Assembly (NCBI GenBank): GCA_964016885.1
Contig: OZ024742.1
Span: 302,932,001 to 302,996,000, forward strand
Length of the DNA stretch: 64,000 bases
Source: Eledone cirrhosa
Lineage: Eukaryota
Direction: 5' to 3'
The notes below the pieces were generated by a model. That model made no database searches. It was not told the origin of the DNA and worked only from the letters and a program-made list of their open reading frames with translations. This document shows, piece by piece, positions 7,290 to 64,000 of this stretch (position 1 is its first letter; every line of letters starts with the position of its first letter). The translations under genes and the position numbers were made by a program.

Positions 7290-7619
7290 TTGAAGTGCTG
7301 AGAATATATTCCCCCCTCTCTCTCCCCTTCCTTCGCCCCTCTCTCGTCCCATCCACCCTTCACGCACCACAACACCCGTGCCCTTCCCGATCCCTACACC
7401 CCTCTCACATTTTTATAACTTTTATTTTAACTTTTATTTTCCCCTTCATATTTTATTTGTATCTCTTTTTTCTCGCTAACCTCCTTCTCGGAGTTCCTCC
7501 CATCCATTCTCCTGATGAAGGACTTATGCCTGAAACGTCGCACCCCGCCACTCTCACTAAGCGTGAAACTAATACTATTTGTAACATTTATTCCTGCGTT
7601 GTCTGTTTTTTGTATTCCG

Positions 7620-7622
<3 letters not shown>
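7290..7622 (+). mobile_element. PLE terminal repeat remnant with a hammerhead core
   Basis: CTGATGA-AGG-acttatg-CCT-GAAACGTC at 7512-7539 (stem I poorly paired); its 3' end recurs inverted at 11117-11160. Confidence 0.55.
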
Positions 7623-7682: not shown

Positions 7683-7846
7683 AACGAAGAGGACCCCGAC
7701 TAAATCTTTAGTCCAGAATTAGCCGTCGAAACGGCTTGAGCTCAGCCGTCGGGGTCCTACTCGTTCCTATTACCCACTCTACTACTCTGAGTATTGAATA
7801 CTTTGGTGCGTTATGGTTCATCTAGTTCCTTACCACACTTCCTTCG

Positions 7847-7848
<2 letters not shown>
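7681..7848 (+). repeat. Fold-back repeat carrying the 3' half of a hammerhead
   Basis: GCCGTC-GAAACGGC-ttgagctca-GCCGTC-GGGGTC preceded by an inverted copy of its own end; relatives at 49436-49643, 57485-57665 and 61801-61998. Confidence 0.6.
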
Positions 7849-7931
<83 letters not shown>

Positions 7932-8144: not shown

Positions 8145-8146
<2 letters not shown>

Positions 8147-10800
8147 CGTTTCTGAATTTGTTTAGCAAGATTCTTTATCTGAAAACGTGTGTTGAAACCG
8201 ATTTTGTTATACTTTGGGAGGGTCATGTTGCCAGTAAGAAACACACGCACCAGTTGCTTTCACTTCAATTTATTATAATAAATTTATAAATTTAGGAATT
8301 TATAATTTCCGGTTGGTTCGTTGGTTCCACAACTAGATGGTTGTTTATATATTGTCAAAGTTCTTTCGTCACTCATTCTGTGACCTCTTCAGTGACTGGG
8401 GGATTCTTTTCTTTGTTTTTGTGCCTCTCCTTTGTTCTGTCCTACGCCATCCTGTTTCTGTGTGTGTGTTGTGTGCTCAGTCTGCGCATGCGCCACATCC
8501 GGGTGTCTGTGTGTGTTTATATTCGTTTATTTATTTGTTTATTTACATGTTACAGGTTGGTTGTTTGTTCTATGTGCGTGTGTGTTTTCATTTTGTCCTT
8601 AATTGTAAGTTGTGATGTTGCTGTTCCACTCATGTTTTCTATTTAATTTTGGTTGTAATTCTTTTATGTTTATTGCCTCTGTGATTTGTCTAAACATTGC
8701 GTCTTTTCTGTGTGTAGATTCTATTTTTATTTCTATGTTCTCTAATTTACCCTTATGTTCTATTTTAGTATGTTGGTAGAGTATAGATGATTCTTTACTA
8801 TCTTGAAGGTCTCGCCAGTGTTCATTTATCCGTTCCCCTACACTACGAGCTGTCTCACCTATATACACTATATTTTTGTCTCTACATTGTCCTTCAGTAC
8901 ATCTTATGCTATATACTACATTTCTAGTTTTACAGTTAATATGGGGGCTTAATTTACAGGTTATACATTTCTTATCTATACAGGGGGGTCTTTGAAAAGG
9001 GTATGTCTTGCTAATAAGTGTTTTTATGGAGGTACCTGGTCTTTCTGCTATCTTAATATTGAGTTTATGTTTATCTAGGGCCCTTCTAAATTTGTAAGCT
9101 AATTCACCTCTAGGGGTTGTATCGATGAACATTACACTCTGGTATTTATTGCTATCATACCATGAGTTTATTCTATTAGCCTTATTCTATTAGCCTTCTA
9201 TTCCAAAATTTGCTCCTATACAAGGGGCAGGTCCCATTTGTGTCATTATTTACCATTTTTCCCATTTGGTTCTGGCTCCTCTATACACTCTAATTTTATC
9301 TCTCTGATTGTAACCAGAGAACTGCATACGGTGGATGAAGTGTTGTATGTGTATCTCTAGTTCTTCGGGGTTGCACATGCGGGACACGTTTCTCATCACC
9401 CGTACCAAATCCGCAATCAGTATGTTGATTTTGGTATGGTCAGATATTTGGAAGTCATGGGTTTGGCATAATGGGAATGGAGGATTTGTTTTTTGTTATT
9501 AATGGTATCTATCCAGAGATCTGTGTCTAGTAATGGTAATCGATGGTTGGGGTGTTTGCTTGGGTAGTCTATAGTAACTCTAATACTCTGATGGATGGAG
9601 TTAGCTATTTGCTGAATGCTTTCCATTGTGTTTTTCTCTAATTCCTGACTGTTCTCTAGTGGGTGTTTTAACTACGATGTTTATATCATCAACGTAGCGG
9701 GAGTACATTATCAGGGTTAAGGGGTCTTTTAATTGTTCTTTAAGTTTAAGTTTAAGTCTACTGTCCCACCATACCATGAATAAGTTAGATATGTCGCCTG
9801 CAATGCTAACACCAATGGGTGCTCCCTCCTCTTGGGCATATGTTTTTCCATTAAATTTGAACATATGTTCCTTAAGGGTTAATTTTATGCTGGCCCCCCA
9901 TGCATGTGCAATCATTTTCTTTAGTTCATCGTGGTTTTCGGGGGTCCGTATGGCTCTGGTCCACCCGTTCCATCTATCTGTGTGGCGTTTCTTGGCCATT
10001 GAGGTAATGGTAGGTGGTCTGCCTCTTGCTGGTCTTGTAGGGCACAGGTTTCTAAGGTCATATGTGTCTACATAATTATTACTATAGGTAAGTTTAAGTA
10101 GGAGTCCAGCTCACTGGTATCAATCCCACGGAACACAACATTGCTCTCACTGATCATTTCTACGCATTTCTCCACAGCAAAATCCACGTCAATAGATGGA
10201 TACAGGGACACAACATCCATACTACCTATTATGCAGTTTGTTAGGTCCCTAGATCGGTTACTCTCGTCGATTCTGCTGAGGAGGTCCTCCGTGCTGTCAC
10301 ATACATCTGGGGACATTTCAATGATGGGGCGTATGATCAGGGAGAGGAAATAGGACAGTCCGTAGTTACTAGCAATGTTAGCTCCACATACTGGCCGTTT
10401 TGGTGGTCCCGTGACAGAGTCACTGCCCGTTTTATGGTCTTTTCGAAGCCCATACAACGCTGGCACGTCATTGTTCCAGGCCTGGAAGTTGTTGGCAGTC
10501 CTTTTGTTGGGCTGCATTATATTTGTCCACATCACCATATGGGCATTGAGGGCTTTTCTCTATCCTCATGCTCTTGTGGTGTTACTTCTGTTGTGTTAGT
10601 GATAATGTACTCCCGCTACGTTGATGATATAAACATCGTAGTTAAAACACCCCCACTAGAGAACAGTCAGGAATTAGAGAAAAACACAATGGAAAGCATC
10701 CAGCAAATAGCTAACTCCATCCACCAGAGTATTAGAGTTACTATAGACTACCAAAGCAAACTCCCCAACCATCGATTACCTGTACTAGACACAGAGCTCT
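8145..10800 (-). mobile_element. Penelope-like element, probably Naiad clade, 5'-truncated and frameshifted
   Basis: RT motifs GSMDVVSLYPSI, GAPIGVSIAG, SRYVDD; GIY-YIG NVVYSIRC..C..VYIGETARSVGERINEH..HTKIEH with CCHH-like residues; terminal repeat 8145-8600; 10600-10800 is an inverted copy of 9514-9712. Confidence 0.85.
8354..8396 (-). ncRNA. Type I hammerhead ribozyme motif in the PLE terminal repeat
   Basis: GTCA-CTGAAGA-G-GTCAC-agaatga-GTGAC-GAAAG-aa-CTT-TGAC. Confidence 0.7.
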
Positions 10801-18059: not shown

Positions 18060-20140
18060 ACATAAATATACCTACTCCTTCCAACACAACTTATACCAAA
18101 CTGCTTATAGATAAAATCGAACAAGTCGTTAAAAGAATGAAATGGAAGGCAATGGTTTAGGATGGACTATTCAGTGCTATTGCAAATGGTTGTTTTGACA
18201 TTAAATCCCGCAAATACCCACTTAGAATTAAAGACATGGCCAACTTCGAATTGGACCTTGTTAATTTAATTAGTGAAATTAAATTTCGTAAGTACAACAA
18301 TAACTTTCAAACTAAACTTTCTAACGATATTTCTAATTTTAAAAATTCTACAAACACTTTTTATTCTTTCCGATAAAGCTAAAAATCTCTTTGAAGTAAA
18401 TAGTATTTTGTATAACCAACTCCTAACAGATAGTATCACCAACAAATATCAATTAGCTAACAATAACACCTACAATAAAGAAGCTAAAAACATAGCTAGT
18501 ATTTTAAAAATAGACAACCGGATTGAAAGCCTAGCTAAACGTAAATAATATATTACCCTTAAAGACCAAAAATCAGACTTCCCTAATCGACCTAGCTGTA
18601 GACTAATTAACCCGGCTAAATCTGAAGTTGGCCTTGCAAGTAAAAAAATCTTAAGAAAAATAATACTGCAAATTAGAACTAAGACTGACTTATCACAATG
18701 GTTAAATACATCCTCTGTTATTTCTTGGTTTAATAATATACAAGGTAAAAATAAGTGTAGATTTACCCAATTTGATATTGTTGATTTTTTACCCCTCTAT
18801 TACTGTTACCTTATTAACAAAAGCCTTAGATTTAGCAAGACCTTTAATTAATATTTCTAAATTAGAAGAAGACAATATCTTTCATGCTAGGAAAACTCTA
18901 CTCTTTACTAATGAAAGTATTTGGGTTAAAAAGTCAAGCCCTGAACACTCTTTTGATGTTGCGATGGGTTCATATGACAGTGCTGATGTGTGCGACTTAG
19001 TAGGATTATTCCTTCTCCACACCCTTAAAGAAAAATATCCTTCCCATAATATCGGTTTATACCGAGACGACGGATTGGCAGTTTCTCATACCATCAACGG
19101 CCATAACATTGATAAATTCCGTAAAGATTTAATCAATACTTTTGCTAACCTAAACCTTAAAATTACTAATGCTGACTTTCTTGATATTAATCTTGATCTA
19201 CTTACTGCCTCTTTTAAACCTTATCATAAACCTAACGAGAATCTAAGATATATACACAAAGAGTCGTGCGATTCCCCTATAGTTTTAAAATATCTTATTC
19301 CTAATATTAGCCGTAGGATTTCTACCTTACCTTCGTCTCTAGACATTTTTAACAAAACCGCCCCTTATTATAATAAGGCCTTCAATAACAGCGGCTTTAC
19401 AGGACATATTAAATATTTACCTACTCCTCCCTCTAAAACTAATCACAATAATAGGAAAAGGAAAATGATTTGGTTTACACCCCCCTTCTCTCTACCTGTC
19501 AAAACTAATGTAGGAAGGGAATTCTTCGACCTCCTAGACAAACATTTCCCCCCTAATCATAGATATAAGATATTTAATAGAAATGTAGTCAAAATCAGTT
19601 ACTCTTGCTGTCCATCAATGAAGACTAAAATTACCAACTCTAATCGTATGAGAGTAAATCCAGGATGCAGTTGCAGGAAGCCGGAAGAATGCCCATTACT
19701 TGGCAAATGTAATACTAGTTCCGTCGTGTATGAGGCCAAATTGACACCGTTGATTAACAACCAGCCAGTCAGGAGTGAACGATATGTTGGCATGACTCAG
19801 GACAGGTTCAAAACCAGGTTTTATGCACATGTCGAGTTAAACAAGATTCAATGAGTACATCAAAGAATGAGTTTTACAGTAGATTGGAAGCACTCTACCG
19901 AAAAATATTTTCCAGAGTTATTAATATTAATTCAAATATTAACAAAATAGATATTCTTGTGATCAATTAAATTGTATTATACATATTTCAGAAGTACTGA
20001 ATCAAGTTCAACATGTCATGTACCATTTTATTTTATCTGATGAGGACGTACTGTTGAACTTGATTCAGTACCTCTGAAATATGTATAATAAAATTTAATT
20101 GATCACAAGAATATCTATTTTGTTAATATTTGAATTAATA
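18060..20140 (+). mobile_element. Penelope-like element (YRDD type, probably Nematis-like), degenerate
   Basis: ORF 18772-19854: MGSYDSADVCDLVG, GLYRDDGL, WFTPPFS, CSCRKPEECPLLGKC, VVYEAKL..YVGMT (GIY-YIG); upstream frames TLKDQK..CRLINPAKSE; inverted terminal segment 19925-20140. Confidence 0.85.
20031..20093 (+). ncRNA. Hammerhead ribozyme motif at the PLE 3' end
   Basis: TTTTAT-CTGATGA-GG..GTACTG..CAGTAC-CTCT-GAAAT-ATGT-ATA-ATAAAA. Confidence 0.6.
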
Positions 20141-24284: not shown

Positions 24285-25352
24285 ACGCACACGCACACGC
24301 ACACGCACACGCACACACACAAATACACACACACGCACACACACAAACAGACAGACACACACACACACACATATATATAGCTAAATGATGAGGCTTGTTA
24401 CACTGGGGTTATACCTGTCGCGCTTGATGATCCTAGCGATGCTCAGAATAACTCCAGAATAACAAGACACACCACTTAGCCATAATACAAATATTTAGAC
24501 TCTACTTCGGTATTGAATACTCATTCTCACGTCCATCAGTATTAACTGGCTGAAGAAAACATAGGTCAGAAAGGCACGAGGCAGAATGGTTACTAAAGCA
24601 AACATGCGCATACATTTTTCCAACACATAAGACCAGTTTGGGAGGAAAACTCTGAAAACTCTAATCGTTTGTTTGCTTTGTCTTGAACAGTTTTAGCTTC
24701 GCATCTGAAAATGGGGTAATAGTCCTGAAATATACTGCTAAAATATACTCTAAAACATTATTTGTTTTGTTTTCTTTCAATTACCTTCATTTTCCCTTCG
24801 TATTTCTTACCGCATTGTACAGCCTTTTCAAAAGCAGTCCGTCAATAAATCGACAGCTGGGTGAGCGGGGACTGTAGTGTAGAGGGAGACAACGTCGAGG
24901 CTAAAAGCGTATTTATTTAGTTTAAGTTGTTCTGGCTGGAGTTGGTATAGTCTACGTATAACTTCGTCGGAGCTACTGACGTGCCCGGGGAAGGTGGAGA
25001 GTAGAGGCTTGAGGACCTGGGAGAGAAGCCAGGAAATTTTGTATAGGGGTCCTTCTATGCTAGAGACGATGGGTCTTATTTGCGTCTTAGTGCTATTCTT
25101 GTGGGTCTTGATGAGGTGGTAGAAAGTGGGCAGTCTGCTATTTCTAGTGGTGTAGTTGAGCTTAACTGAAATGCCTACCAACTGAAATGGATATCGACTC
25201 TCGACAACAACACCACGGAATCCACCACACCCAGATTCCCGATATACCAACTAGATCGCCCACTCTATCCACCGCCCGCCAACCGCGAGCTGGAAGAAAA
25301 ACTCTCGAGACTAAAACATTCCGTATTTAACATCTTACGGAAACAGAAGAAG

Positions 25353-27075
25353 ATGGCCCCAAACCTCTCCAGGACACAACAACTCGCCCTGAAGAACCTA
25401 CGGAATAAGGAACTTATTTACTTACCATCCGACAAAGGTAAAGAGTTCTGCGTCATCTCTCAAGCCACGTACAATAACCTAGCCTTCGAACACCTTAGCG
25501 ACAGTGAATTATACACAGTGATCCCGGACATGACTGCAGCCCAAATCGAAAAACAGACCAACTTCATTTGGTTCGATATCTGTAGGAGAAGACAACTCCC
25601 GAATAAAGTTAAGCTCAACTACACCACTAGAAATAGCAGACTGCCCACTTTCTACCACCTCATCAAGACCCACAAGAATAGCACTAAGACGCAAATAAGA
25701 CCCATCGTCTCTAGCATAGAAGGACCCCTATACAAAATTTCCTGGCTTCTCTCCCAGGTCCTCAAGCCTCTACTCTCCACCTTCCCCGGGCATGTCAGTA
25801 GCTCCGACGAAGTTATACGTAGACTACACCAACTCCAGCCAGAACAACTTAAACTAAATAAATACGCTTTTAGCCTCGACGTTGTCTCCCTCTACACTAC
25901 AGTCCCCGCTCACCCAGCTGTCGATTTATTGACGGACTGCGTGGTCGCAGAGAACATCCACTGCTACGGCCTCCACCCGACGGACATACACCAGCTTTTG
26001 TCCTTCACAGTAGACAACACGTACTTCACCTTCCACCACCACACATACAGACAGACAACAGGATTACCCATGGGATCCAGCCTTTCAGGCCTGCTGGCCA
26101 TCACCTACATGAACCAGCTAGAATGCCGAGCCCTCAACACCTGCCATTCCCATGCCTTCTTCACCCGATATGTAGATGACATACTCATCCTTACATCATC
26201 CCGTGAGGGGGCAGAGAAAATATACACAACATTCTCCAGCATGGACGCCAGTATAAAGTTCAGCATGGAACACCCCGATGACCGCGGATCTCTATCCCTA
26301 CTGGACTTCCAACTCAGGGTAACAGAGGAAGGCAACATCCACACCTGCTTCTATAAAAAATCCGCCAGCAGGGACCTGTTCGTGCATTTCAGATCGGCCC
26401 TCCCACTCGGTGCCAAGTTCGGATACATAAAGAACGAACTGGCACGTATCAAGAACAAATGCACCGACGCCAGAGACCGAGACACACACACCATACATTT
26501 CCTGGAAGTACTCAAACTGAACGGATACACGACATCCACCACAAACCGTGCCAGAAAGAACAGAGGACACCACACCCGAGGCACTAACACTTGCTTCCTG
26601 AAGCTCCCACACTTCAGTGAAAAAAACAACAACAGCCATCCGCAGAGCCATCAGACGAGAGGGACTGGATATCCAACTTGCCCATTCGGGTCCTCTGCGC
26701 GGACGGCTGGCCAAGAGACACTCCACCAGACATGACAACTGCTGCAGACTAGCCAACCGCCCCATCAACGACACAGACCTATGCCACCAGGCTTACGTAG
26801 TATACAGACTAGAGTGTGACAAATGCAACAACTTCTACGTAGGTAGCACCACCAGACCACTCCACATAAGAATAAAAGAACACCTCAATACTAACGCTTC
26901 CTCATTTAAGAAACACCTAGTTAAATGCAAAAACACCGATAAAAACATAACAGTTAGGATAGAAACTAAGGAAAGAAACCTCGGCAATCTTAGAATTAAG
27001 GAAGCACTTATTATAGATAAAACACATCCACCAATCAATAATAGACTAGAGCTCAACACCCAATTTATAACCTGA
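25353..27075 (+). pseudogene. PLE reverse transcriptase and GIY-YIG endonuclease, one frameshift near 26620
   Basis: PSDKGK, IRPIVS, SLDVVSLYT, GLPMGSSLS, TRYVDD; second frame VVYRLEC..YVGSTTRPLHIRIKEH..KEALII..N. Confidence 0.9.
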
Positions 27076-29716: not shown

Positions 29717-30023
29717 ATAAATTGAAACAAAATGAAAACGAAATTTCATTTCTCACTCTTAGTATGGCACTTACTTAAATGTAAGTATGCATGTATACGT
29801 ACATACATATATGTATACAGACGTACAGTAGCATGCACATATATATATATATACATATATATATACATATGCATACAGGTACACATACATATATGCACGT
29901 ATCAGTTTAGCGGCGCTTATTATAACGTCGCTTTGTTCGTTTGTAAACAAACTGAACAGCCTGAATTTATGCCATACGGTGTTAAGGCAACCACGTCACC
30001 TTTTTGTTCAACACTGACACAGG

Positions 30024-30068
30024 AACGATGTACTAGTTTCAAGCTAGTTAGCTATCATCAGCACCGTT
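30024..30068 (-). ncRNA. Type I hammerhead ribozyme (family A, copy 1)
   Basis: AACGGTG-CTGATGA-T-AGCT-aact-AGCT-T-GAAACTAGTA-CATCGTT. Confidence 0.85.
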
Positions 30069-30096
30069 TACCCATCTGCCAGATAGTTGAACTTTT

Positions 30097-30149
30097 GAAA
30101 GTATATACTTTCCTTATGAAAATTAACGGCTGAGCAGCCTAATTTGCAT
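30097..30149 (-). promoter_or_regulatory. Putative octamer plus TATA promoter module of family A
   Basis: Minus strand ATGCAAAT, 30 nt, AAAGTATATA upstream of the hammerhead; same layout at 62321-62369. Confidence 0.35.
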
Positions 30150-30495
30150 ATTGAGTGAGTTAAATCGGTCAGGCATACCGAAAACGATAAATTGAAACAA
30201 AATGAAAACAAAATTTCATTTCTCACTCTTAGTATGGCACTTACTTAAATGTAAGTATGCATGTATACGTACATACATATATGTATACAGACGTACAGTA
30301 GCATGCACATATATATATATATATACATATATATATACATATGCATACAGGTACACATACATATATGCACGTATCAGTTTAGCGGCGCTTATTATAACGT
30401 CGCTTTGTTCGTTTGTAAACAAACTGAACAGCCTGAATTTATGCCATACGGTGTTAAGGCAACCACGTCACCTTTTTGTTCAACACTGACACAGG

Positions 30496-30540
30496 AACGA
30501 TGTACTAGTTTCAAGCTTGTTAGCTATCATCAGCACCGTT
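30496..30540 (-). ncRNA. Type I hammerhead ribozyme (family A, copy 2)
   Basis: As copy 1 with loop II AACA. Confidence 0.85.
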
Positions 30541-31024
30541 TACCCATCTGCCAGATAGTTGAACGTTCGAAAGTATATACTTTCCTTATGAAAATTAACG
30601 GCTGAGCAGCCTAATTTGAATATTGAGTGAGTTAAATCGGTCAGGCATACCGAAAACGATAAATTGAAACCAAATGAAAACAAAATTTCATTTCTCACTC
30701 TTAGTATGGCACTTACTTAAATGTAAGTATGCATGTATACGTACATACATATATGTATACAGACGTACAGTAGCATGCACATATATATATATATATACAT
30801 ATATATATACATATGCATACAGGTACACATTCAGTTTGTTTACAAACGAACAAAGCGACGTTATAATAAGCGCCGCTAAACTGATACGTGCATATATGTA
30901 TGTGTACCTGTATGCATATGTATATATATATGTATATATATATATATATGTGCATGCTACTGTACGTCTGTATACATATATGTATGTACGTATACATGCA
31001 TACTTACATATATATTTATATATT

Positions 31025-35449: not shown

Positions 35450-35655
35450 ATTTTTTTTTTATATATATATTTATATATATATATTTATATATATATTTAT
35501 ATATATATATATTTATATATATATATATATGTGAATATAGACATAGAATATTCGAAAATATTCTGTATGTTTATAATAAACATTTTGAAGACCTAATCGC
35601 TATAGAATAGAATACGTCACGTATTACAATTAGATTCTCGATAAAAGCAAGGGAA

Positions 35656-35698
35656 GTAATCTACGCGTTTCATTCTTGTTAGAAATCTTCAGGACTAC
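35656..35698 (-). ncRNA. Type I hammerhead ribozyme (family B, copy 1)
   Basis: GTAGTC-CTGAAGA-T-TTCT-aaca-AGAA-T-GAAACGCGTA-GATTAC. Confidence 0.85.
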
Positions 35699-35965
35699 AT
35701 ATCCAGTGCTTTTATCGAGAATGACACAGCTAGAGACTTATAGAATACTTAGCTGTGTACAGGAACTGGTTTGAAAGAGCGGTTGCCGGTCCGGCAGAAA
35801 TTAGAAATTGGAATAAATGCTCTGAAATAGCGATATATATGTGAATATAGACATAGAATATTCGAAAATATTCTGTATGTTTATAATAAACATTTTGAAG
35901 ACCTAATCGCTATAGAATAGAATACGTCACGTATTACAATTAGATTCTCGATAAAAGCAAGGGAA

Positions 35966-36008
35966 GTAATCTACGCGTTTCATTCTTGTTAGAAATCTTC
36001 AGGACTAC
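35966..36008 (-). ncRNA. Type I hammerhead ribozyme (family B, copy 2)
   Basis: Identical to copy 1. Confidence 0.85.
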
Positions 36009-36270
36009 ATATCCAGTGCTTTTATCGAGAATGACACAGCTAGAGACTTATAGAATACTTAGCTGTGTACAGGAACTGGTTTGAAAGAGCGGTTGCCGGT
36101 CCGGCAGAAATTAGAAATTGGAATAAATGCTCTGAAATAGCGATATATATGTGAATATAGACATAGAATATTCGAAAATATTCTGTATGTTTATAATAAC
36201 CAGTTCCTGTACACAGCTAAGTATTCTATAAGTCTCTAGCTGTGTCATTCTCGATAAAAGCACTGGATAT

Positions 36271-36313
36271 GTAGTCCTGAAGATTTCTAACAAGAATGAA
36301 ACGCGTAGATTAC
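36271..36313 (+). ncRNA. Type I hammerhead ribozyme (family B, inverted copy)
   Basis: Same motif read on the plus strand. Confidence 0.85.
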
Positions 36314-36630
36314 TTCCCTTGCTTTTATCGAGAATCTAATTGTAATACGTGACGTATTCTATTCTATAGCGATTAGGTCTTCAAAATGTTTATTATAAAC
36401 ATACAGAATATTTTCGAATATTCTATGTCTATATTCACATATATATCGCTATTTCAGAGCATTTATTCCAATATATATATATATTTTTTTATATATATAT
36501 TTATATATATATATTTATATATATATATATTTATATATATATATATATATATTTTTTATATATATATTTATATATATATATTTATATATATATATTTATA
36601 TATATATATATTTATATATATATATCTATC

Positions 36631-40171
<3,541 letters not shown>

Positions 40172-40242
40172 ATATATATATATTTAAATGTAAGTATGTA
40201 TGTATACGTACATACATATATGTATACAGACGTACAGTAGCA

Positions 40243-40303
<61 letters not shown>

Positions 40304-40461
40304 GCATACAGGTACACATACATATATGCACGCATCAGTTTAGCCAACGTTTATTATAACGCCGCTTTGTTCGTTTGTTTGTCAACAAACCGAACAGCCT
40401 GAATTTATGCCATACGGTGTTAAGGCAACCACGTCACCTTTTTGTTCAACACTGACACAGG

Positions 40462-40506
40462 AACGATGTACTAGTTTCAAGCTTGTTAGCTATCATCAGC
40501 ACCGTT
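40462..40506 (-). ncRNA. Type I hammerhead ribozyme (family A, copy 3)
   Basis: AACGGTG-CTGATGA-TAGCT-aaca-AGCTT-GAAACTAGTA-CATCGTT. Confidence 0.85.
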
Positions 40507-40740
40507 TACCCATCTGCCAGATAGTTGAACGTTCGAAAGTATATACTTTCCTTATGAAAATTAACGGCTGAGCAGCCTAATTTGCATATTGAGTGAGTTA
40601 AATCGGTCAGGCATACCGAAAACGATAAGTTGAAAAAAATGAAAACGAAATTTCATTTCTCACTCTTAGTATGGCACTTACTTAAATGTAAGTATGTATG
40701 TATACGTACATACGTATATGTATACAGACGTACAGTAGCA

Positions 40741-40807
<67 letters not shown>

Positions 40808-40965
40808 GCATACAGGTACACATACATATATGCACGCATCAGTTTAGCCGACGTTTATTATAACGCCGCTTTGTTCGTTTGTTTGTCAACAAACCGAACA
40901 GCCTGAATTTATGCCATACGGTGTTGAGGCAACCACGTCACCTTTTTGTTCAACACTGACACAGG

Positions 40966-41010
40966 AACGATGTACTAGTTTCAAGCTTGTTAGCTTTCAT
41001 CAGCACCGTT
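40966..41010 (-). ncRNA. Type I hammerhead ribozyme (family A, copy 4)
   Basis: As above, stem II AAGCT/AGCTT fully paired. Confidence 0.85.
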
Positions 41011-41089
41011 TACCCATCTGCCAGATAGTTGAACGTTCGAAAGTATATACTTTCCTTATGAAAATTAACACCGTATGTCATAAATATAT

Positions 41090-49374: not shown

Positions 49375-49435
49375 AAACGTAATGAAGGAGTAACCACTCG
49401 TCCTTGTTTTATTTTATTATATATACATATATATA

Positions 49436-49641
49436 GGAAAAAGTATGACTCCGACGGCAGAGCTCAAGCCGTTTCGACGGCTATTTCTGGACTATTTATG
49501 GCTATTTCCAGAAATAGCCGTCGAAACGGCTTGAGCTCTGCCGTCGGAGTCATACTTTTCCCTATTACCCACTCTACTACCCTAAGTATTGAGTACTCTG
49601 GTGCGTTATGGTCCATCTGGTTCCTTACCACAATTTATTCG

Positions 49642-49643
<2 letters not shown>
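49436..49643 (+). repeat. Fold-back half-hammerhead repeat (family of 7681-7848)
   Basis: Inverted arms around 49495; GAAACGGC..GCCGTC. Confidence 0.7.
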
Positions 49644-49723
<80 letters not shown>

Positions 49724-54221: not shown

Positions 54222-54226
<5 letters not shown>

Positions 54227-54928
54227 TATGCTTACGTACATACATATATGTATACAGACGTACAGTAGTATGTATATATATATACATACATGCACACATA
54301 TGTATATGTACGTATGGATTCAGCGAACATTTATTATAATGCTCGGTGTGTTTGTAAACAAACATCCCGTATTAAGCCGTAGTGTCTAGCAACCATCGTT
54401 GCTCGTTTGTTCAACACTGACAAAAGAACGCTGTACTAGTTTCAAGCTTATTAGCTATCGTCAGCAACGTATACCTTCCTGCCAGATGATTGAACGTATG
54501 AAAGTATATACTTTCCTTATGCATATTAACGGCTGAGTAGCCCAATTTGCATATCGAGTGGGTTAATCGGCCGGGTGCACCGAAAACGATAAACGGAAAA
54601 AATGAAACGAAATTTCATTTCCCACTCTTAGTACGGCTGTTACTAGCTTGAAACTAGTACAGCGTTCCTTTATCAGTGTTGAACAAACGAGCAACGATGG
54701 TTGCTAGACACTACGGCTTAATACAGGATGTTTGTTTACAAACACACCGAGCATTATAATAAATGTTCGGTGAATCCATACGTACATATACATATGTGTG
54801 CATGTATGTATATATATACATACTACTGTACGTCTGTATACATATATGTATGTACGTATACATACTTATATTTAAGTAACAGCCGTACTAAGAGTGGGAA
54901 ATGAAATTTCGTTTCATTTTTTCCGTTT
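54222..54928 (-). mobile_element. Diverged family A monomer plus inverted partial copy
   Basis: Colinear with the 470-bp unit; inversion from ~54643. Confidence 0.8.
54428..54470 (-). ncRNA. Type I hammerhead ribozyme (family A, diverged)
   Basis: ACGTTG-CTGACGA-TAGCT-aata-AGCTT-GAAACTAGTA-CAGCGT; compensated stem I. Confidence 0.85.
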
Positions 54929-54931
54929 ATA

Positions 54932-55672: not shown

Positions 55673-57484
55673 ACACCTAACGTGTTTTCTCCATCGGTCC
55701 TCCTATTTTATGTCCCGTATCACAACACCACTGAAATGCTAGAATTGGCTTGTCTAGTGTTGTGCATAGATGTGTTTACTTGAAGACCACTAAGTTGGGA
55801 TGTGCTTCTCCTCTTCCTGATGTGCAGCGTGGGTCGAGTGCCTAATATCTGCTGGCTTTGGGAGGCAATTCTCTACATATAACACTTTTAGTAACAACTG
55901 TTCTAGGCAAAATACTTCATAGAACGGTAGCTTCCGGGACTATGACGTGTAAGAATCATCCCCAAACACAGCATTCTTACTAATTAAATGTAAGTGTTCT
56001 GACGAATCGTTTGAATTTTCTCACTTCCAAGTCTATTAGATCAGTGACTAAGTGCTGGCCAGAGCGCGCCGAAGTAAATTAGGTTAAGCACTCGATGCTG
56101 TTACAAGGTCTGTCTCGTGTTGCGTTGTGTTCCAGAATTGAGGTAGCTGTAGCGTGTTTGCTTATGCAGATTTACCCAAACGTCATATCGACACTATTTA
56201 TAAAGCCAGCGCTGACATTGTTTATGTCTCTTATTTCGACAAAAGTATATACGACACTTAAAAAATATAGTATCGATACTGGATCTATTTCATCACCTAC
56301 ATATTTGTAGTTTTTAAAATACTCCCCTCTTATATATTTCACAATGTTTCCTTCACATGACGATAATAAGGGACAATTAAAAACCCTCTCCATTGTTACC
56401 TAACATTCTAGCAGTCTTCTGTTATCATGAACCACATATGAGGAGGGCTACATACGTTACAAATTCGTGTGATCCTCTGAGCATTACTTTCTAATGCCTT
56501 CATGAATGGGGACGCGCGTGATTAAGGTTATAATTAATGATATCTCGCCCTACATTTGCCTAAGATACATAGAAATGTTAATGGAGGAACACGAGAGATG
56601 TGGTTAAAACAAAGTCAACCACTCTCCAAATGTGGGTAGATAAACTATAGCAGCTGCAAATGCTGCTCACCCCTTGGGCTTAATATTAGTTACCGAACAC
56701 AACACAAACCTGGGGAACACATTAGTGTTTTAGTGGAGAGCAGGAGGCTTATGTGCTACAAGTGTGTTAGTATTAAATACTACAAATCCTTTTTGTTTTC
56801 AAATCCGGTGGATGAAAACTTTACTGCTAACATCACGACTACAACAACAACAACAGCAGCAACAATTTCAAAAGCAAAAACAACGTGAGAGTACAACAAT
56901 AACAACAGTAGCAACTGCTGCAATGAAAGCAACAACAACAACCGCAAAAGCAGCGACAGAATCTTCAGCACCAACAAAAACAGCAAGACAAAGAACAACT
57001 ATACAAACTTCACAAAAAGAAATACCTAGAACAGCAACAGCAACAACGCAATATGACACTCTACCCATCCACCGAATCCTTTTTTTCTTCCACCCCAACC
57101 TAATATAAACATACATACATATGCAGACACCTCGTCACCCCTTCTCTGTTTCGCACACACACTTGCCACGCTCTTTCCCTATGGTGATCTATGTTTGAAA
57201 CGTAATTCCTTCGTTAGTTCTCTCTCCCTGACCCTCTCTTTTAATCTTTTACTTTCTCACATACACCCATAATTCTTAGCAAAAATTCCCCATAAATCGG
57301 CGTTGCTGCCGCTGCCACCATCACCGCCATCCTGACCACATCCATCGTCCTTTTCTTTTTCGATCTCTCTCATTCAGAAGCACACATTTACTTACCACAC
57401 TGTTTCACACCATGACAGAATTTTTACGCCACAGACACAACATTAAAATATATGTATATGTAATCATATTCCTTTTATATATAT

Positions 57485-57665
57485 AACAGAGAGGGTGTAG
57501 TAAGATATCAGGTGGACCCTGAGGCACCAGAGTACTTAGGGTAGTAGAATGGGTATTAGGTAAAGAGTCAGGACACCGATAGCCGTATCGACAGCTAGAT
57601 CCGAACTGTTCGGATCTAGCTGTCGATATGGCCGGAGCTCAGCCGTCGGGGTCCTGAATCTTTTC
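57485..57665 (-). repeat. Diverged fold-back repeat (family of 7681-7848)
   Basis: Palindrome ATCGACAGCTAGATCCGAAC-T-GTTCGGATCTAGCTGTCGAT; CTTAGGGTAGTAGAATGGGTA shared with other copies. Confidence 0.6.
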
Positions 57666-57671
57666 ATATAT

Positions 57672-58307
57672 ATATTGTTATGCTTTGGGAGGGTCCTGTT
57701 GCCAATAAGAAACACACGCACCAGTTGCTTTCACTTCAATTTATTATAAATTAAATTTATAAATTTAAGAATTTATAAATTTCAGGTTCCATAACCGGAC
57801 GGTTGTTCATATATTGTCAAAGTTCTTTCGTCACACATTCTGTGACCTCTTCAGTGACTAGGGATTCTTTTCTTTGTTTTGTGCCTCTCCTTTGTTCTAC
57901 CCTACGCCATCTTGTTTTTGTGTGTGTTGTGTGCTTAGTTTGCGCATCTGTTACATCCGGATGTAACACATGCGCAAACTAAGCACACAACAAAAACAAG
58001 ATGGCATAGGACAGAACAAAGGAGAGGCACAAAAGCAAAGAAAAGAATCCCCAGTCACTGAAGAGGTCACAGAATGTGTGACGAAAGAACTTTGACAATA
58101 TATGAATAATCGTCTGGTTGTGGAACCAACCAACCAACCGGAAATTTATAAATTCCTAAATTTATAAATTTAATTTATAATAAATTGAAGTGAAAGCAAC
58201 TGGTGCGTGTGTTTCTTATTGGCAACATGACCCTCCTAAAGCATAACAATATCGGTTTCAACACACGTTTTCAGATAAAGAATCTGGGTAAACAAATTCA
58301 GAAACGA
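57672..58307. mobile_element. Inverted pair of Naiad-like PLE terminal repeats without coding sequence
   Basis: Both arms match 8145-8500; centre CATCCGGATG near 57958; hammerheads at 57816-57858 (-) and 58054-58096 (+). Confidence 0.85.
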
Positions 58308-61733: not shown

Positions 61734-61800
<67 letters not shown>

Positions 61801-61802
<2 letters not shown>

Positions 61803-61998
61803 CGAAGGAAATGTGGTATGGAACCACGTGGACCATAACGCACCAATGTACTCAATACTTAGGGTAGTAGAGTGGGTAATAGGAACGAGTAGGACCCCGA
61901 CGGCTGAGTTCAAGCCGTTTCGACGGCTAATTCAGGACTTAGTCCAGAATTAACCGTCGAAACGGCTTGAGCTCAGTCGTCGGGATCCTACTCGTTCC
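61801..61998 (-). repeat. Fold-back half-hammerhead repeat (family of 7681-7848)
   Basis: 61880-61998 is a near-perfect palindrome centred on GGACTTAGTCC. Confidence 0.75.
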
Positions 61999-62216
61999 TA
62001 TATATATATATATATATATATATGCATTTCTCTCTCTTCCTTCGAGTCAACTCACATCTAGTCGCTGATTCTTTCCTTCGAGGTAATATTTTACCCAAAG
62101 CCGTTTCGACGGTATTTTGGTGTTCTAACAGCTTCCCTATGCCGAGTTTTCCAATTTTCCTGAGAATCCTAAAACACTCGCGTCGTCTTAAAACTCTTAT
62201 TTCAAGTTAATTTGTT

Positions 62217-62256
<40 letters not shown>

Positions 62257-62320
62257 CATATATTGAAGCGAAATCCTATTTCTTTTTTATTATAAGTTGA
62301 ACCAACTTATGCAGCTTCAT

Positions 62321-62369
62321 ATGCAAATGAGATTAATCACCTCATTTACACAGACGAGAAAAGTATATA
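62321..62369 (+). promoter_or_regulatory. Putative octamer plus TATA promoter module of family C
   Basis: ATGCAAAT, 31 nt including TCACC, then AAAGTATATA. Confidence 0.35.
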
Positions 62370-62413
62370 TTCTCATCTGTCTTCTAGTCCAGCAGTCGCA
62401 AGCAGTGGGAGGG

Positions 62414-62457
62414 ACCGTCCTGACGAAGGCCAATTAAGCCTGAAATGCATAGACGGT
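62414..62457 (+). ncRNA. Type I hammerhead ribozyme (family C)
   Basis: ACCGTC-CTGACGA-AGGC-caattaa-GCCT-GAAATGCATA-GACGGT; stem I extends over 62381-62491. Confidence 0.9.
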
Positions 62458-62583
62458 TGTCCCCCTTGCTTCTGCTGGACATCACCAGAAGGCGTTAGCC
62501 CCCCCCCCCATCCCGCAGCCGGTGTTTACATAGCTACGGCTTCCTAAAGCTGTATTTCTTTGGAGATACGAAATATTTATACA

Positions 62584-63109
62584 TCTATATATATAAAGCT
62601 GTGGTTGTCTGTCTGTCTATCGATTTTTGGCACACATCTCCTCTTAGAATCTCTGACGGAATTGCACCGAAATTGCTATACTTGTACATTGAGCTCTAGC
62701 GAAGACATCGGAAAAAATAATTTCAAATTGACCCACCCTATGTGACGAAATCGAATCTAATGTATCGATTTTTGAGCGTAAGTGACGAGTTATTTCCCTT
62801 TGTTCTGTTTACATTGAGCGTCTTACGTTGTTTTTCTCTGCGTTGCAGTGTTTACATTTTCGATCTTTGTTAATAAATAACCAGTGCAGTTTTTATCCCC
62901 AGCATCCTCTTTTGTTATAACATTCGGGTTATCGTTATGTTTTCTTAACTTCATAAGGCATATTGTTGGTTGAGGGAATATTAATCAAAAACACCACATG
63001 CAAGTCTGCACAGTAGACACTACAGTTTTTAAGCCAAAAAAGAAACTTAACATTGTAACTTTAACACAGCTACTGAGCGACCCCGAGCAACGCCGAGCTT
63101 TACTGCTAG
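62584..63109 (+). mobile_element. Non-autonomous Helitron
   Basis: A|TCTATATATATAAAGCTGTGGTTGTCTGTCTGTC ... CCGAGCAACGCCGAGCTTTACTGCTAG|T; 3' end shared with the 896-2355 element. Confidence 0.85.
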
Positions 63110-64000
63110 TATTGTATAAAGCTATGCTTGAAGCGAAATCCTATTTCTTTTATATATATATATATAGAGAGAGAGAGAGATATATATACACGGGTGTGTA
63201 TGATTGTGTATAGAAGATTATATTAATAAAAGGAATTCCAACTTTATCTGATTTACTCGTTTTATTTACAATCCTTTAAAATTTATAATGGTATTATAAT
63301 GAAATAGTATGATAGAATATTAAATGTTAAGTGTTAATTGAACAAGTACTTTCATGCTTTCGCAATCTTCAGGTTCATAATGTGTGGTGACAGTCAAGTT
63401 TGCAATTTTCAACTGAAAATGTGCTTGAATTGATACCTTCATATTTCAAACCAAATGTTTACTGTTTATCTTATTCTTACGGCTGGAAAATGAAACAAAA
63501 AAAAATATTCGATGTTATATGATATACCGCATTAAGACATGAAAATATCGATTGTTTGATTAAGCTTAGTAATTGAGTATATTTTAACTCACAAGCTTCT
63601 TCACATATTATAGGTTTGATGGATATTCTAATTCCTCCTTCAGCAGGTCTTGTGTACGGTTTTGTTTTCAAACACGATCTAGGCAAGTTGAAAAAAGAAG
63701 AATTTTGTTAGATATTATTTATTTACACCATTATTAAATAAAAATGGCGTAGACATTACAGTACAACGGGAGGAAACATCATAATACCACTGATGATGTC
63801 ACAGATGTGTGACGAGAGACATATATATATATATATTTATATCAGTATTTTTAACCGTTGGTCAATCAATGATAAACATTGATTGTCAGATAAGTTAACT
63901 ATGGAGATATAAAAGATACAGAAGCGAAAACCAATCCAATCCAAACTGAGTGTGTTTTGCTATTATTTCTGGCAATATTATAACAATATGATCCTCCCCA

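Follow-up and report, generated by a model that had tools for sequence, protein, structure and literature searches.

Which enzyme moves animal retrozymes, and where on their RNA does it start? The class is known from many animals, with LINEs or Penelope elements named as candidate movers in a 2020 paper (PMC7229834) and a Penelope partner argued from co-occurrence and from likeness to pseudo-LTRs in a 2026 preprint (10.64898/2026.07.22.740005). The question is raised by a locus of Eledone cirrhosa at which a 339-nt hammerhead unit, ordinary in itself, is bounded by a 24-bp repeat and split by a Helitron. The stretch of 64,000 nucleotides that was analysed (the window) holds two more hammerhead families, A and B, beside this one, family C. 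We consider it likely that the family C locus is one Helitron-split copy of a many-copy 339-nt hammerhead family, probably written into (TA)n by Penelope machinery. Direct support comes from the 24-bp repeat, the empty sites, the head-to-tail junction, the homology with family B and the geometry of the A and B ends.

A 339-bp monomer split by a Helitron

The original prediction described a retrozyme monomer masked by a Helitron and bounded by a 24-bp direct repeat. The repeat is exact (62263-62286 and 63128-63151), and its 24-mer occurs at just these two places in the window, where the 25-mer is unique; the number of exact 24-mer pairs expected within 1 kb over 64 kb is ~3e-6. The predicted Helitron at 62584-63109 was confirmed as well: it spans 526 bp, starts with TC, ends with CTAG and lies between A and T with no duplication. 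Its removal leaves 363 bp, which is 339 + 24 and agrees with the 339-bp monomer claimed, and it restores, as foreseen, a hairpin at the empty site, an 8-bp stem (62576-62583/63113-63120) of which 7 pairs are found in the plus-strand fold. Four of eight public runs (X1, X4, X5 and X6) were aligned to 62263-63151 at 85% likeness, and the layout of the locus is as follows.

62217 to 62262, no strand: left (TA)n tract in the sequence, the presumed insertion target.
62263 to 62286, plus strand: first copy of the 24-bp terminal redundancy, with a 5-bp hairpin (62270-62282) whose homologue precedes two family B ends.
62263 to 62583, plus strand: first 321 nt of the retrozyme monomer, with depth in all bins of X1, X4 and X6, and collinear with family B (z 5.4-8.0).
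62321 to 62328, plus strand: ATGCAAAT, which we take to be an octamer-type motif, kept in three of four aligned family B units; a possible internal promoter element.
62360 to 62369, plus strand: TATA-like block, common to family B and within a hairpin loop.
62387 to 62480, plus strand: type I hammerhead whose stem I is extended; core 62413-62458, helix III of 1 bp, palindrome 62445-62450, predicted cut after 62451.
62584 to 63109, plus strand: 526-bp non-autonomous Helitron with TC...CTAG ends, an A/T site, no duplication and a decayed 3' hairpin; its empty-site joint is found in X1, X5 and X6, and there are unrelated flanks and head-to-tail reads.
63110 to 63127, plus strand: last 18 nt of the monomer, completing the Helitron-broken hairpin.
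63128 to 63151, plus strand: second copy of the 24-bp repeat, at which the insertion ends 3' and reverse transcription presumably began; with the Helitron left out of the count, this end lies 174 nt downstream of the ribozyme cut.
63152 to 63187, no strand: right (TA)n/(GA)n tract in the sequence.

The insert behaves as a mobile element of its own in X6, where 1075 reads have unlike flanks before 62583 (agreement 0.47), 499 have a different CTAG end before 62584 and 31 join 63109 to 62586, that is, one Helitron head-to-tail with another. Its subterminal hairpin is weak in this copy (-2.4 kcal/mol); a G stands at 63096 in >99% of the X1 depth, with a stem that is longer by inspection. A related Helitron 3' end lies at 896-922 of the window, and we presume a likeness of the insert to Lep1-type Helitron elements. 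The 5' end of the Helitron (62592-62607) resembles the target just past its 3' end (63115-63130) in 14 of 16 letters, a resemblance that is either chance or target preference.

The unit itself, with 339 nt and 43% GC, fits the 150-450 bp and GC <50% expected of retrozymes. No open frame of at least 110 aa overlaps it, and no LTR, PBS or PPT was seen in it. It is non-coding and of a known kind, that of the animal non-LTR retrozymes. A plant LTR retrozyme, which would have LTRs of ~350 bp with type III hammerheads, a PBS, a PPT and a duplication of 4 bp, was also considered and is ruled out by the type I motif and by a 24-bp repeat that carries no ribozyme. The locus has a single hammerhead core, where the 2026 preprint counts two in tandem as 'active'; solo monomers are counted there as retrozyme derivatives, and are common (10.64898/2026.07.22.740005). 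The family C locus is such a solo monomer, a predicted inactive dead end.

To the left, the flank at 62249-62262 ends in TATACATAT, which is also found at the Helitron site of the unit and at the position homologous to the first end site of family B. Because TATACATAT is present at 22 of the 188 TA-tract ends in the window, we kept the left boundary of the element where it is; an overlap that was once longer and has been deleted in part is possible on this side.

Helitron-free and head-to-tail copies in public runs

The Helitron-free joint from 62583 to 63110 was found in 17 X1 contigs, in one X5 contig and in 102 X6 raw reads from 6 starts, and 17 further X1 records have monomer sequence directly before 63110; in X4, it was absent from the 15 of 43 joints listed. 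Among the joints listed, two contigs carry the head-to-tail junction, one of them by arithmetic; a further 28 joints and 473 loose ends lie beyond the listing. The first, X4 record 10, is 124 nt long, accounts for a depth of 132.8 of the 164.7 at 62276, and has 47 letters before 62264 (the 30 displayed are the monomer end) before continuing to 62340. The second, X5 record 17, has 64 unaligned letters before 62263 and a depth of 6.95, which is that of the X5 empty-site joint, whose short side is 18; here the head-to-tail path follows from arithmetic (46+18+84=148, the length of the record) and not from a printed alignment. X5 is organism B with a share of words of 0.05, from which a single contig was used, and the X4 record serves as sequence evidence and not as expression, the kind of X1 and X4 not being on record. 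Such short contigs show a junction and not the length of an array, and tandem arrays and permuted monomers look alike in them.

Since one X4 contig, and one X5 contig by arithmetic, read from the monomer end through the 24-mer into the monomer start, the 24-mer is element sequence. Helitron-free and head-to-tail forms in other runs thus bear out the masked retrozyme monomer, and they are the opposite of the case named beforehand as its refutation, in which the 24-bp repeat would be a target-site duplication around a monomer never seen in tandem or permuted form.

Family C is many-copy and diverse: 5381 X1 contigs align, monomer and Helitron together, spread over four likeness bands from 85 to 100%, with the summed contig depth not being a copy number. 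The copy studied here differs from the X1 majority at no fewer than 11 monomer positions among 40 of 187 rows listed, and one X1 contig joins opposite strands within the family (62389/62430). No further family C copy was found in the window by blastn or nhmmer. Pattern scans gave 0 and 0 matches in viral contigs, 0 in prokaryote genomes and 0 and 1 in metagenome contigs; the single metagenome match, on a GC-rich contig with no hammerhead around it, was set aside as chance.

A hammerhead of the dimer-dependent type

The ribozyme comprises CTGACGA at 62420-62426, stem II at 62427-30/62438-41 and GAAA at 62442-45, with the cut predicted after 62451. The region 62370-62500 folds with a z of -4.4 (0 of 200 shuffles as stable), and the hammerhead stems have pair probabilities of 0.96-1.0. 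In helix III, the palindromic tetraloop UGCA closes a single A-U pair, whose pair probability in the monomer is 2e-5, and two copies of the palindrome can pair as a 6-bp duplex of -4.7 kcal/mol (computed). The ribozyme is thus, as modelled, of the dimer-dependent type, and because helix III is of this type a lone copy would be unable to release a monomer. The core had been called canonical, which holds for its letters and not for activity as a monomer, given the one-pair helix III and its palindromic tetraloop. The extension of stem I that had been proposed with it is real, with two of the three outer stems optional on folding: AAGCA/TGCTT is a minor register (pair probability 0.11 vs 0.88 for GCAAG/CTTGC), and CTTCT/AGAAG forms in the local fold but is absent from the fold of the circular monomer.

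As a circle, the monomer folds with a z of -4.9 and with stems I and II formed, compared with z of 0.9 to -1.0 in four of five controls; the fifth (52800, z -7.0) was dropped for its TA tract. The strand opposite the ribozyme folds better still (z -8.1 vs -4.9), which counts against the preferred reading. There are 13 A-C oppositions on the ribozyme strand, two of them at the 11 tested sites where the X1 majority letter differs, and the better reverse-strand fold is explained only partly. No Rfam hammerhead match reached the gathering score in the window, and at E<=10 the scan yielded microsatellite-driven noise alone.

Changes between families keep the pairing. Each of the three has a palindrome in helix III, spelled differently (CGCG in A, CTAG in B, TGCA in C), and in 4 of the 12 ribozyme pairs both letters differ between B and C (reached by 0 of 500 shuffles; at most 1 in each of 6 slid controls), a count from 5 distinct rows and two families and so from few independent events. 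Within family C, stem II reads GAAC/GTTC instead of AGGC/GCCT in a sister subfamily of 45 X1 contigs (agreement 0.69), three of the four pairs being swapped with pairing kept. In four of the five family B cores, stem II has a mismatch of T with T at its base. A main X4 variant over 62377-62521 (depth ~130) is 9 nt shorter in stem-loop II, at 62433, and has 8 nt in place of the 48 nt after 62472; it is not among the variants listed for X1 or X6. Predicted dimers need not cut in practice, since of nine Xenopus dimers one was cleaved and eight were not (10.64898/2026.07.22.740005).

Family C is a sister of a tandem family in the window

On alignment, family C proves to be collinear with the 472-bp tandem family B and its sister at ~60% identity: the two agree in 59-61% of letters over 284-297 nt with z of 5.4-8.0, against -0.2 on the wrong strand. 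The likeness is significant upstream of the ribozyme alone (0 of 500 shuffles, twice) and not downstream of it (357 and 75 of 500 shuffles reach the score). The shared blocks come in the same order, namely the small hairpin in the 24-mer, ATATGCAAAT, the TATA-like block, whose G is C in 72% of the X1 depth, and the ribozyme. Conservation of the octamer alone would be weak evidence in a 60%-identical alignment, and its interest rests on the fact that 4 of the 6 octamers of the window fall in B or C units. The claim of a third retrozyme family is hence right as to sequence, given the ~60% identity to family B, and wrong as to an independent kind, given that family B is its homologue.

Family B has a 472-bp hammerhead unit that is tandem and ORF-free and has an internal TA-rich stretch. 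Its insertions with inverted arms lie at 29717-31012, 40181-41084 and about 54225-54930, where the ~14-nt arm at 41071-41084 and the arms near 54250 and 54930 were placed by eye. The arm ends of the first insertion are 59 nt apart, and five B arm ends fall at two sites of the unit 55-60 nt apart, about 253-261 (3 arms) and about 316 (2 arms). Family A, at 35523-36472, has a 310-bp hammerhead unit in 2.2 copies on the minus strand and a 275-bp inverted arm, with arm ends that differ by 26 nt, or up to ~35 given TA ambiguity. Its units are 99-100% alike, the circular fold has a z of -4.3, and the CGCG palindrome of its helix III loop is of the same design as in C. Insertions of both families sit in TA tracts.

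Insertion junctions point to a probable Penelope partner

Inverted arms, a preference for (TA)n and a tail of 30-40 bp at a single end have been described for Penelope-like elements, and the tail has been traced to two internal start sites of the reverse transcriptase (PMC8557442, PMC11167929). Families A and B have these hallmarks, with (TA)n targets, inverted arms and a tail of 26–59 nt at one end, and we match them to Penelope because the arm-end offsets of A and B and the two end sites of B resemble the Penelope tail and its two start sites. For family C, one locus with known ends, the flanks and the 3' end fit the same pattern. The insertion ends 4 nt after the small hairpin, whose homologue lies 15 nt before the second site of B. 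When the end motif of C was compared with the B hairpin 15 nt before two B ends, none of 2000 shuffles reached the score in the last 50 nt of B, and 13 of 2000 reached it anywhere in B. Since the C end is 174 nt from the ribozyme cut, the start of reverse transcription would be internal. The fit is looser elsewhere: the 24-nt overlap of C is shorter than the 55-60-nt tail of B, its 5' end lies ~20 nt from the position homologous to the first site of B, and compared with three Penelope-type terminal regions in the window it had no likeness (z -0.4 to -1.7), so that the likeness to pseudo-LTRs was not found. On balance, Penelope-driven insertion of family C is probable.

The window, with 35% GC and 8.7% TA tracts, contains elements with enzymes of this type. 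A broken Penelope-like element at 8146-10559 on the minus strand has the RT, the CxxxxCxxC linker and the GIY-YIG domain and ends on (TA)n, and LINE-type RT and endonuclease frames are present too.

Other elements were noted in passing. The hammerhead-like terminal region (8392) of the broken element recurs as an inverted pair, at 57854 (minus) and 58058 (plus), within 57672-58307. A second broken Penelope-like element (24834-27075, plus strand) has RT at 25170-26735 and GIY-YIG at 26602-27075 in different frames and a 334-bp inverted copy at 24834-25167 that is 99.4% alike. At 7512, a minimal hammerhead-like motif has almost no helix III, in a region that ends on (TA)n near 7622. A ~200-bp repeat at 61800-62001, with a near-perfect 61-bp hairpin and TA-tract flanks, has copies near 7708-7849, 49433-49644 and 57448-57675, and a 15-nt piece of it recurs at 62098-62112. 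Finally, a 382-aa open frame at 18706-19854 has no Pfam match and a YRDD motif and is RT-like by eye.

For family C we infer cleavage, a circle, the partner enzyme and a promoter, and the copy would have arisen as follows. Tandem copies elsewhere would be transcribed; two hammerheads would pair via the AUGCAU palindrome and then cut, and ligation may close the monomers into circles. The nick in (TA)n would come from a GIY-YIG endonuclease of Penelope type. Reverse transcription by the Penelope enzyme would begin within the unit, immediately 3' of the small hairpin of the 24-nt segment and not at the ribozyme cut, and would run for one unit and a further 24 nt along a circle or a multimer left uncut. 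The Helitron would have inserted later, at an AT in a hairpin of the unit.

For transcription, the octamer and the TATA-like block might tentatively be read as an internal promoter of the snRNA type, by analogy with newt satellite 2, for which such a promoter is known (cited in PMC2220036). Both blocks also sit at hairpins, and they may therefore be features of the RNA instead. A broader proposal, which we regard as rather doubtful, is that B and C parasitize Penelope elements and drive their own transcription from an internal octamer/TATA promoter of the snRNA type, that a small hairpin common to both fixes the start of the Penelope reverse transcriptase, and that the 24-nt overlap in C is the fixed one-turn product of a circle, ending at the hairpin. 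If it were true, some of the 'large target-site duplications' of animal retrozymes would be such overlap, and the geometry of a junction would directly name the partner enzyme.

Alternative origins of the copy

The cDNA reads through the cut site without a break, and its template would thus have been an RNA circle closed by ligation or a multimer that had not been cut. The retrozyme model in print derives more-than-unit cDNA from a circle (PMC7761336, PMC7229834), and we see an even balance between a circular template on one side and an uncleaved multimer or array collapse on the other. The strongest alternative accordingly keeps the same element and lets the 24-nt overlap be a chance truncation, either on a linear uncut multimeric template or in a longer array that lost whole units through recombination or assembly collapse. 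This would give the identical 1.07-unit product, agrees with the fractional arrays of the neighbouring families (1.9-2.4 units), and is in line with Penelope insertion in vitro, which proceeds without need for cleavage and for which, in the Anolis element, uncleaved RNA was the main substrate (PMC8557442, PMC11167929); an overlap of 40 nt or less would follow from a uniform truncation point in about 1 of 8 cases (40/339). Against it, by analogy, the retrozymes of coral, mussel and axolotl occur mainly as circles, and a dimer-type helix III would suit multimers that are cut and monomers that are stable. We hold this alternative to be a serious one, of slightly less than even probability.

LINE-type mobilization or amplification as a DNA satellite, with no role of Penelope for C, could draw on the LINE-type RT and endonuclease frames in the window, on the absence from C of a sequence match to the Penelope termini tested there, and on TA tracts that make up 8.7% of the window, so that landing in one is not rare. 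We find it unlikely, as poly(A) tail and target duplication are both absent at C, TA tracts lie on both of its flanks and the homologous family B has the paired tail and no-tail inverted arms of Penelope-like elements.

The unit might also be a pseudo-LTR remnant of an autonomous Penelope element and no stand-alone retrozyme: pseudo-LTRs carry type I hammerheads, some with a palindromic helix III, and of 57 Xenopus retrozyme families 24 resemble known transposons, 21 of 22 Penelope-like (10.64898/2026.07.22.740005). In family C the monomer end joins the monomer start directly, with no space left for an ORF, stems I and II have the canonical and not the minimal size, and the sister family B is ORF-free and tandem, which makes such an origin very improbable. 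A host target-site duplication of 24 bp around a 315-bp element, conceivable in that large duplications are mentioned in the literature on animal retrozymes, can practically be dismissed, as the 24-mer is joined to monomer end and start elsewhere (X4 record 10; X5 record 17, by arithmetic) and the X1 depths of its two copies (14,070 + 74,317) add up to the depth inside the element (88,819 at 62301).

Comparison with known systems

The preferred reading, of a Helitron-split retrozyme copy probably written by Penelope machinery, places the locus beside several known systems. The insert has the 5' TC, the 3' CTAG, the A/T site without duplication and the head-to-tail junctions of non-autonomous Helitrons, whose subterminal hairpin is weak in this copy (PMC4778049, PMC4038834). 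With the metazoan non-LTR retrozymes (PMC7229834, PMC7761336), family C shares a non-coding unit of 150-450 bp with GC <50% and a type I hammerhead, and also many copies, head-to-tail junctions, a well-folded predicted circle and coexisting Penelope-like elements, so that all testable features of the class are present except two ribozymes at the locus. It differs from them in that here there is a single, Helitron-split copy of 1.07 units, known from sequence alone, and in that the terminal repeat is element sequence and not a target duplication. The unit is similar in length to newt satellite 2 and to the axolotl HHR_Amex1 repeat, ~330 bp, and has the same helix III of one pair and a palindromic tetraloop, theirs being active as a dimer (PMC7229834).

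With Penelope-like elements (PMC11167929, PMC8557442, PMC4209133) and Xenopus retrozymes (10.64898/2026.07.22.740005), families A and B share (TA)n targets, inverted arms and an extension at one end, and family C its (TA)n flanks and a presumed internal start downstream of the ribozyme; unlike Penelope-like elements, family C has no ORF and its overlap is 24 nt instead of 30-40 nt. In the open-licence literature (the supplements of the 2020 paper and of the preprint lying outside this scope), we found no description of tails or paired start sites in non-LTR retrozymes. All three families of the window are ORF-free retrozymes with the junctions of Penelope, which in C are seen at the flanks and the 3' end, and they single out one hairpin as a candidate for the start. 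The locus thereby adds evidence on the partner enzyme at the level of junctions.
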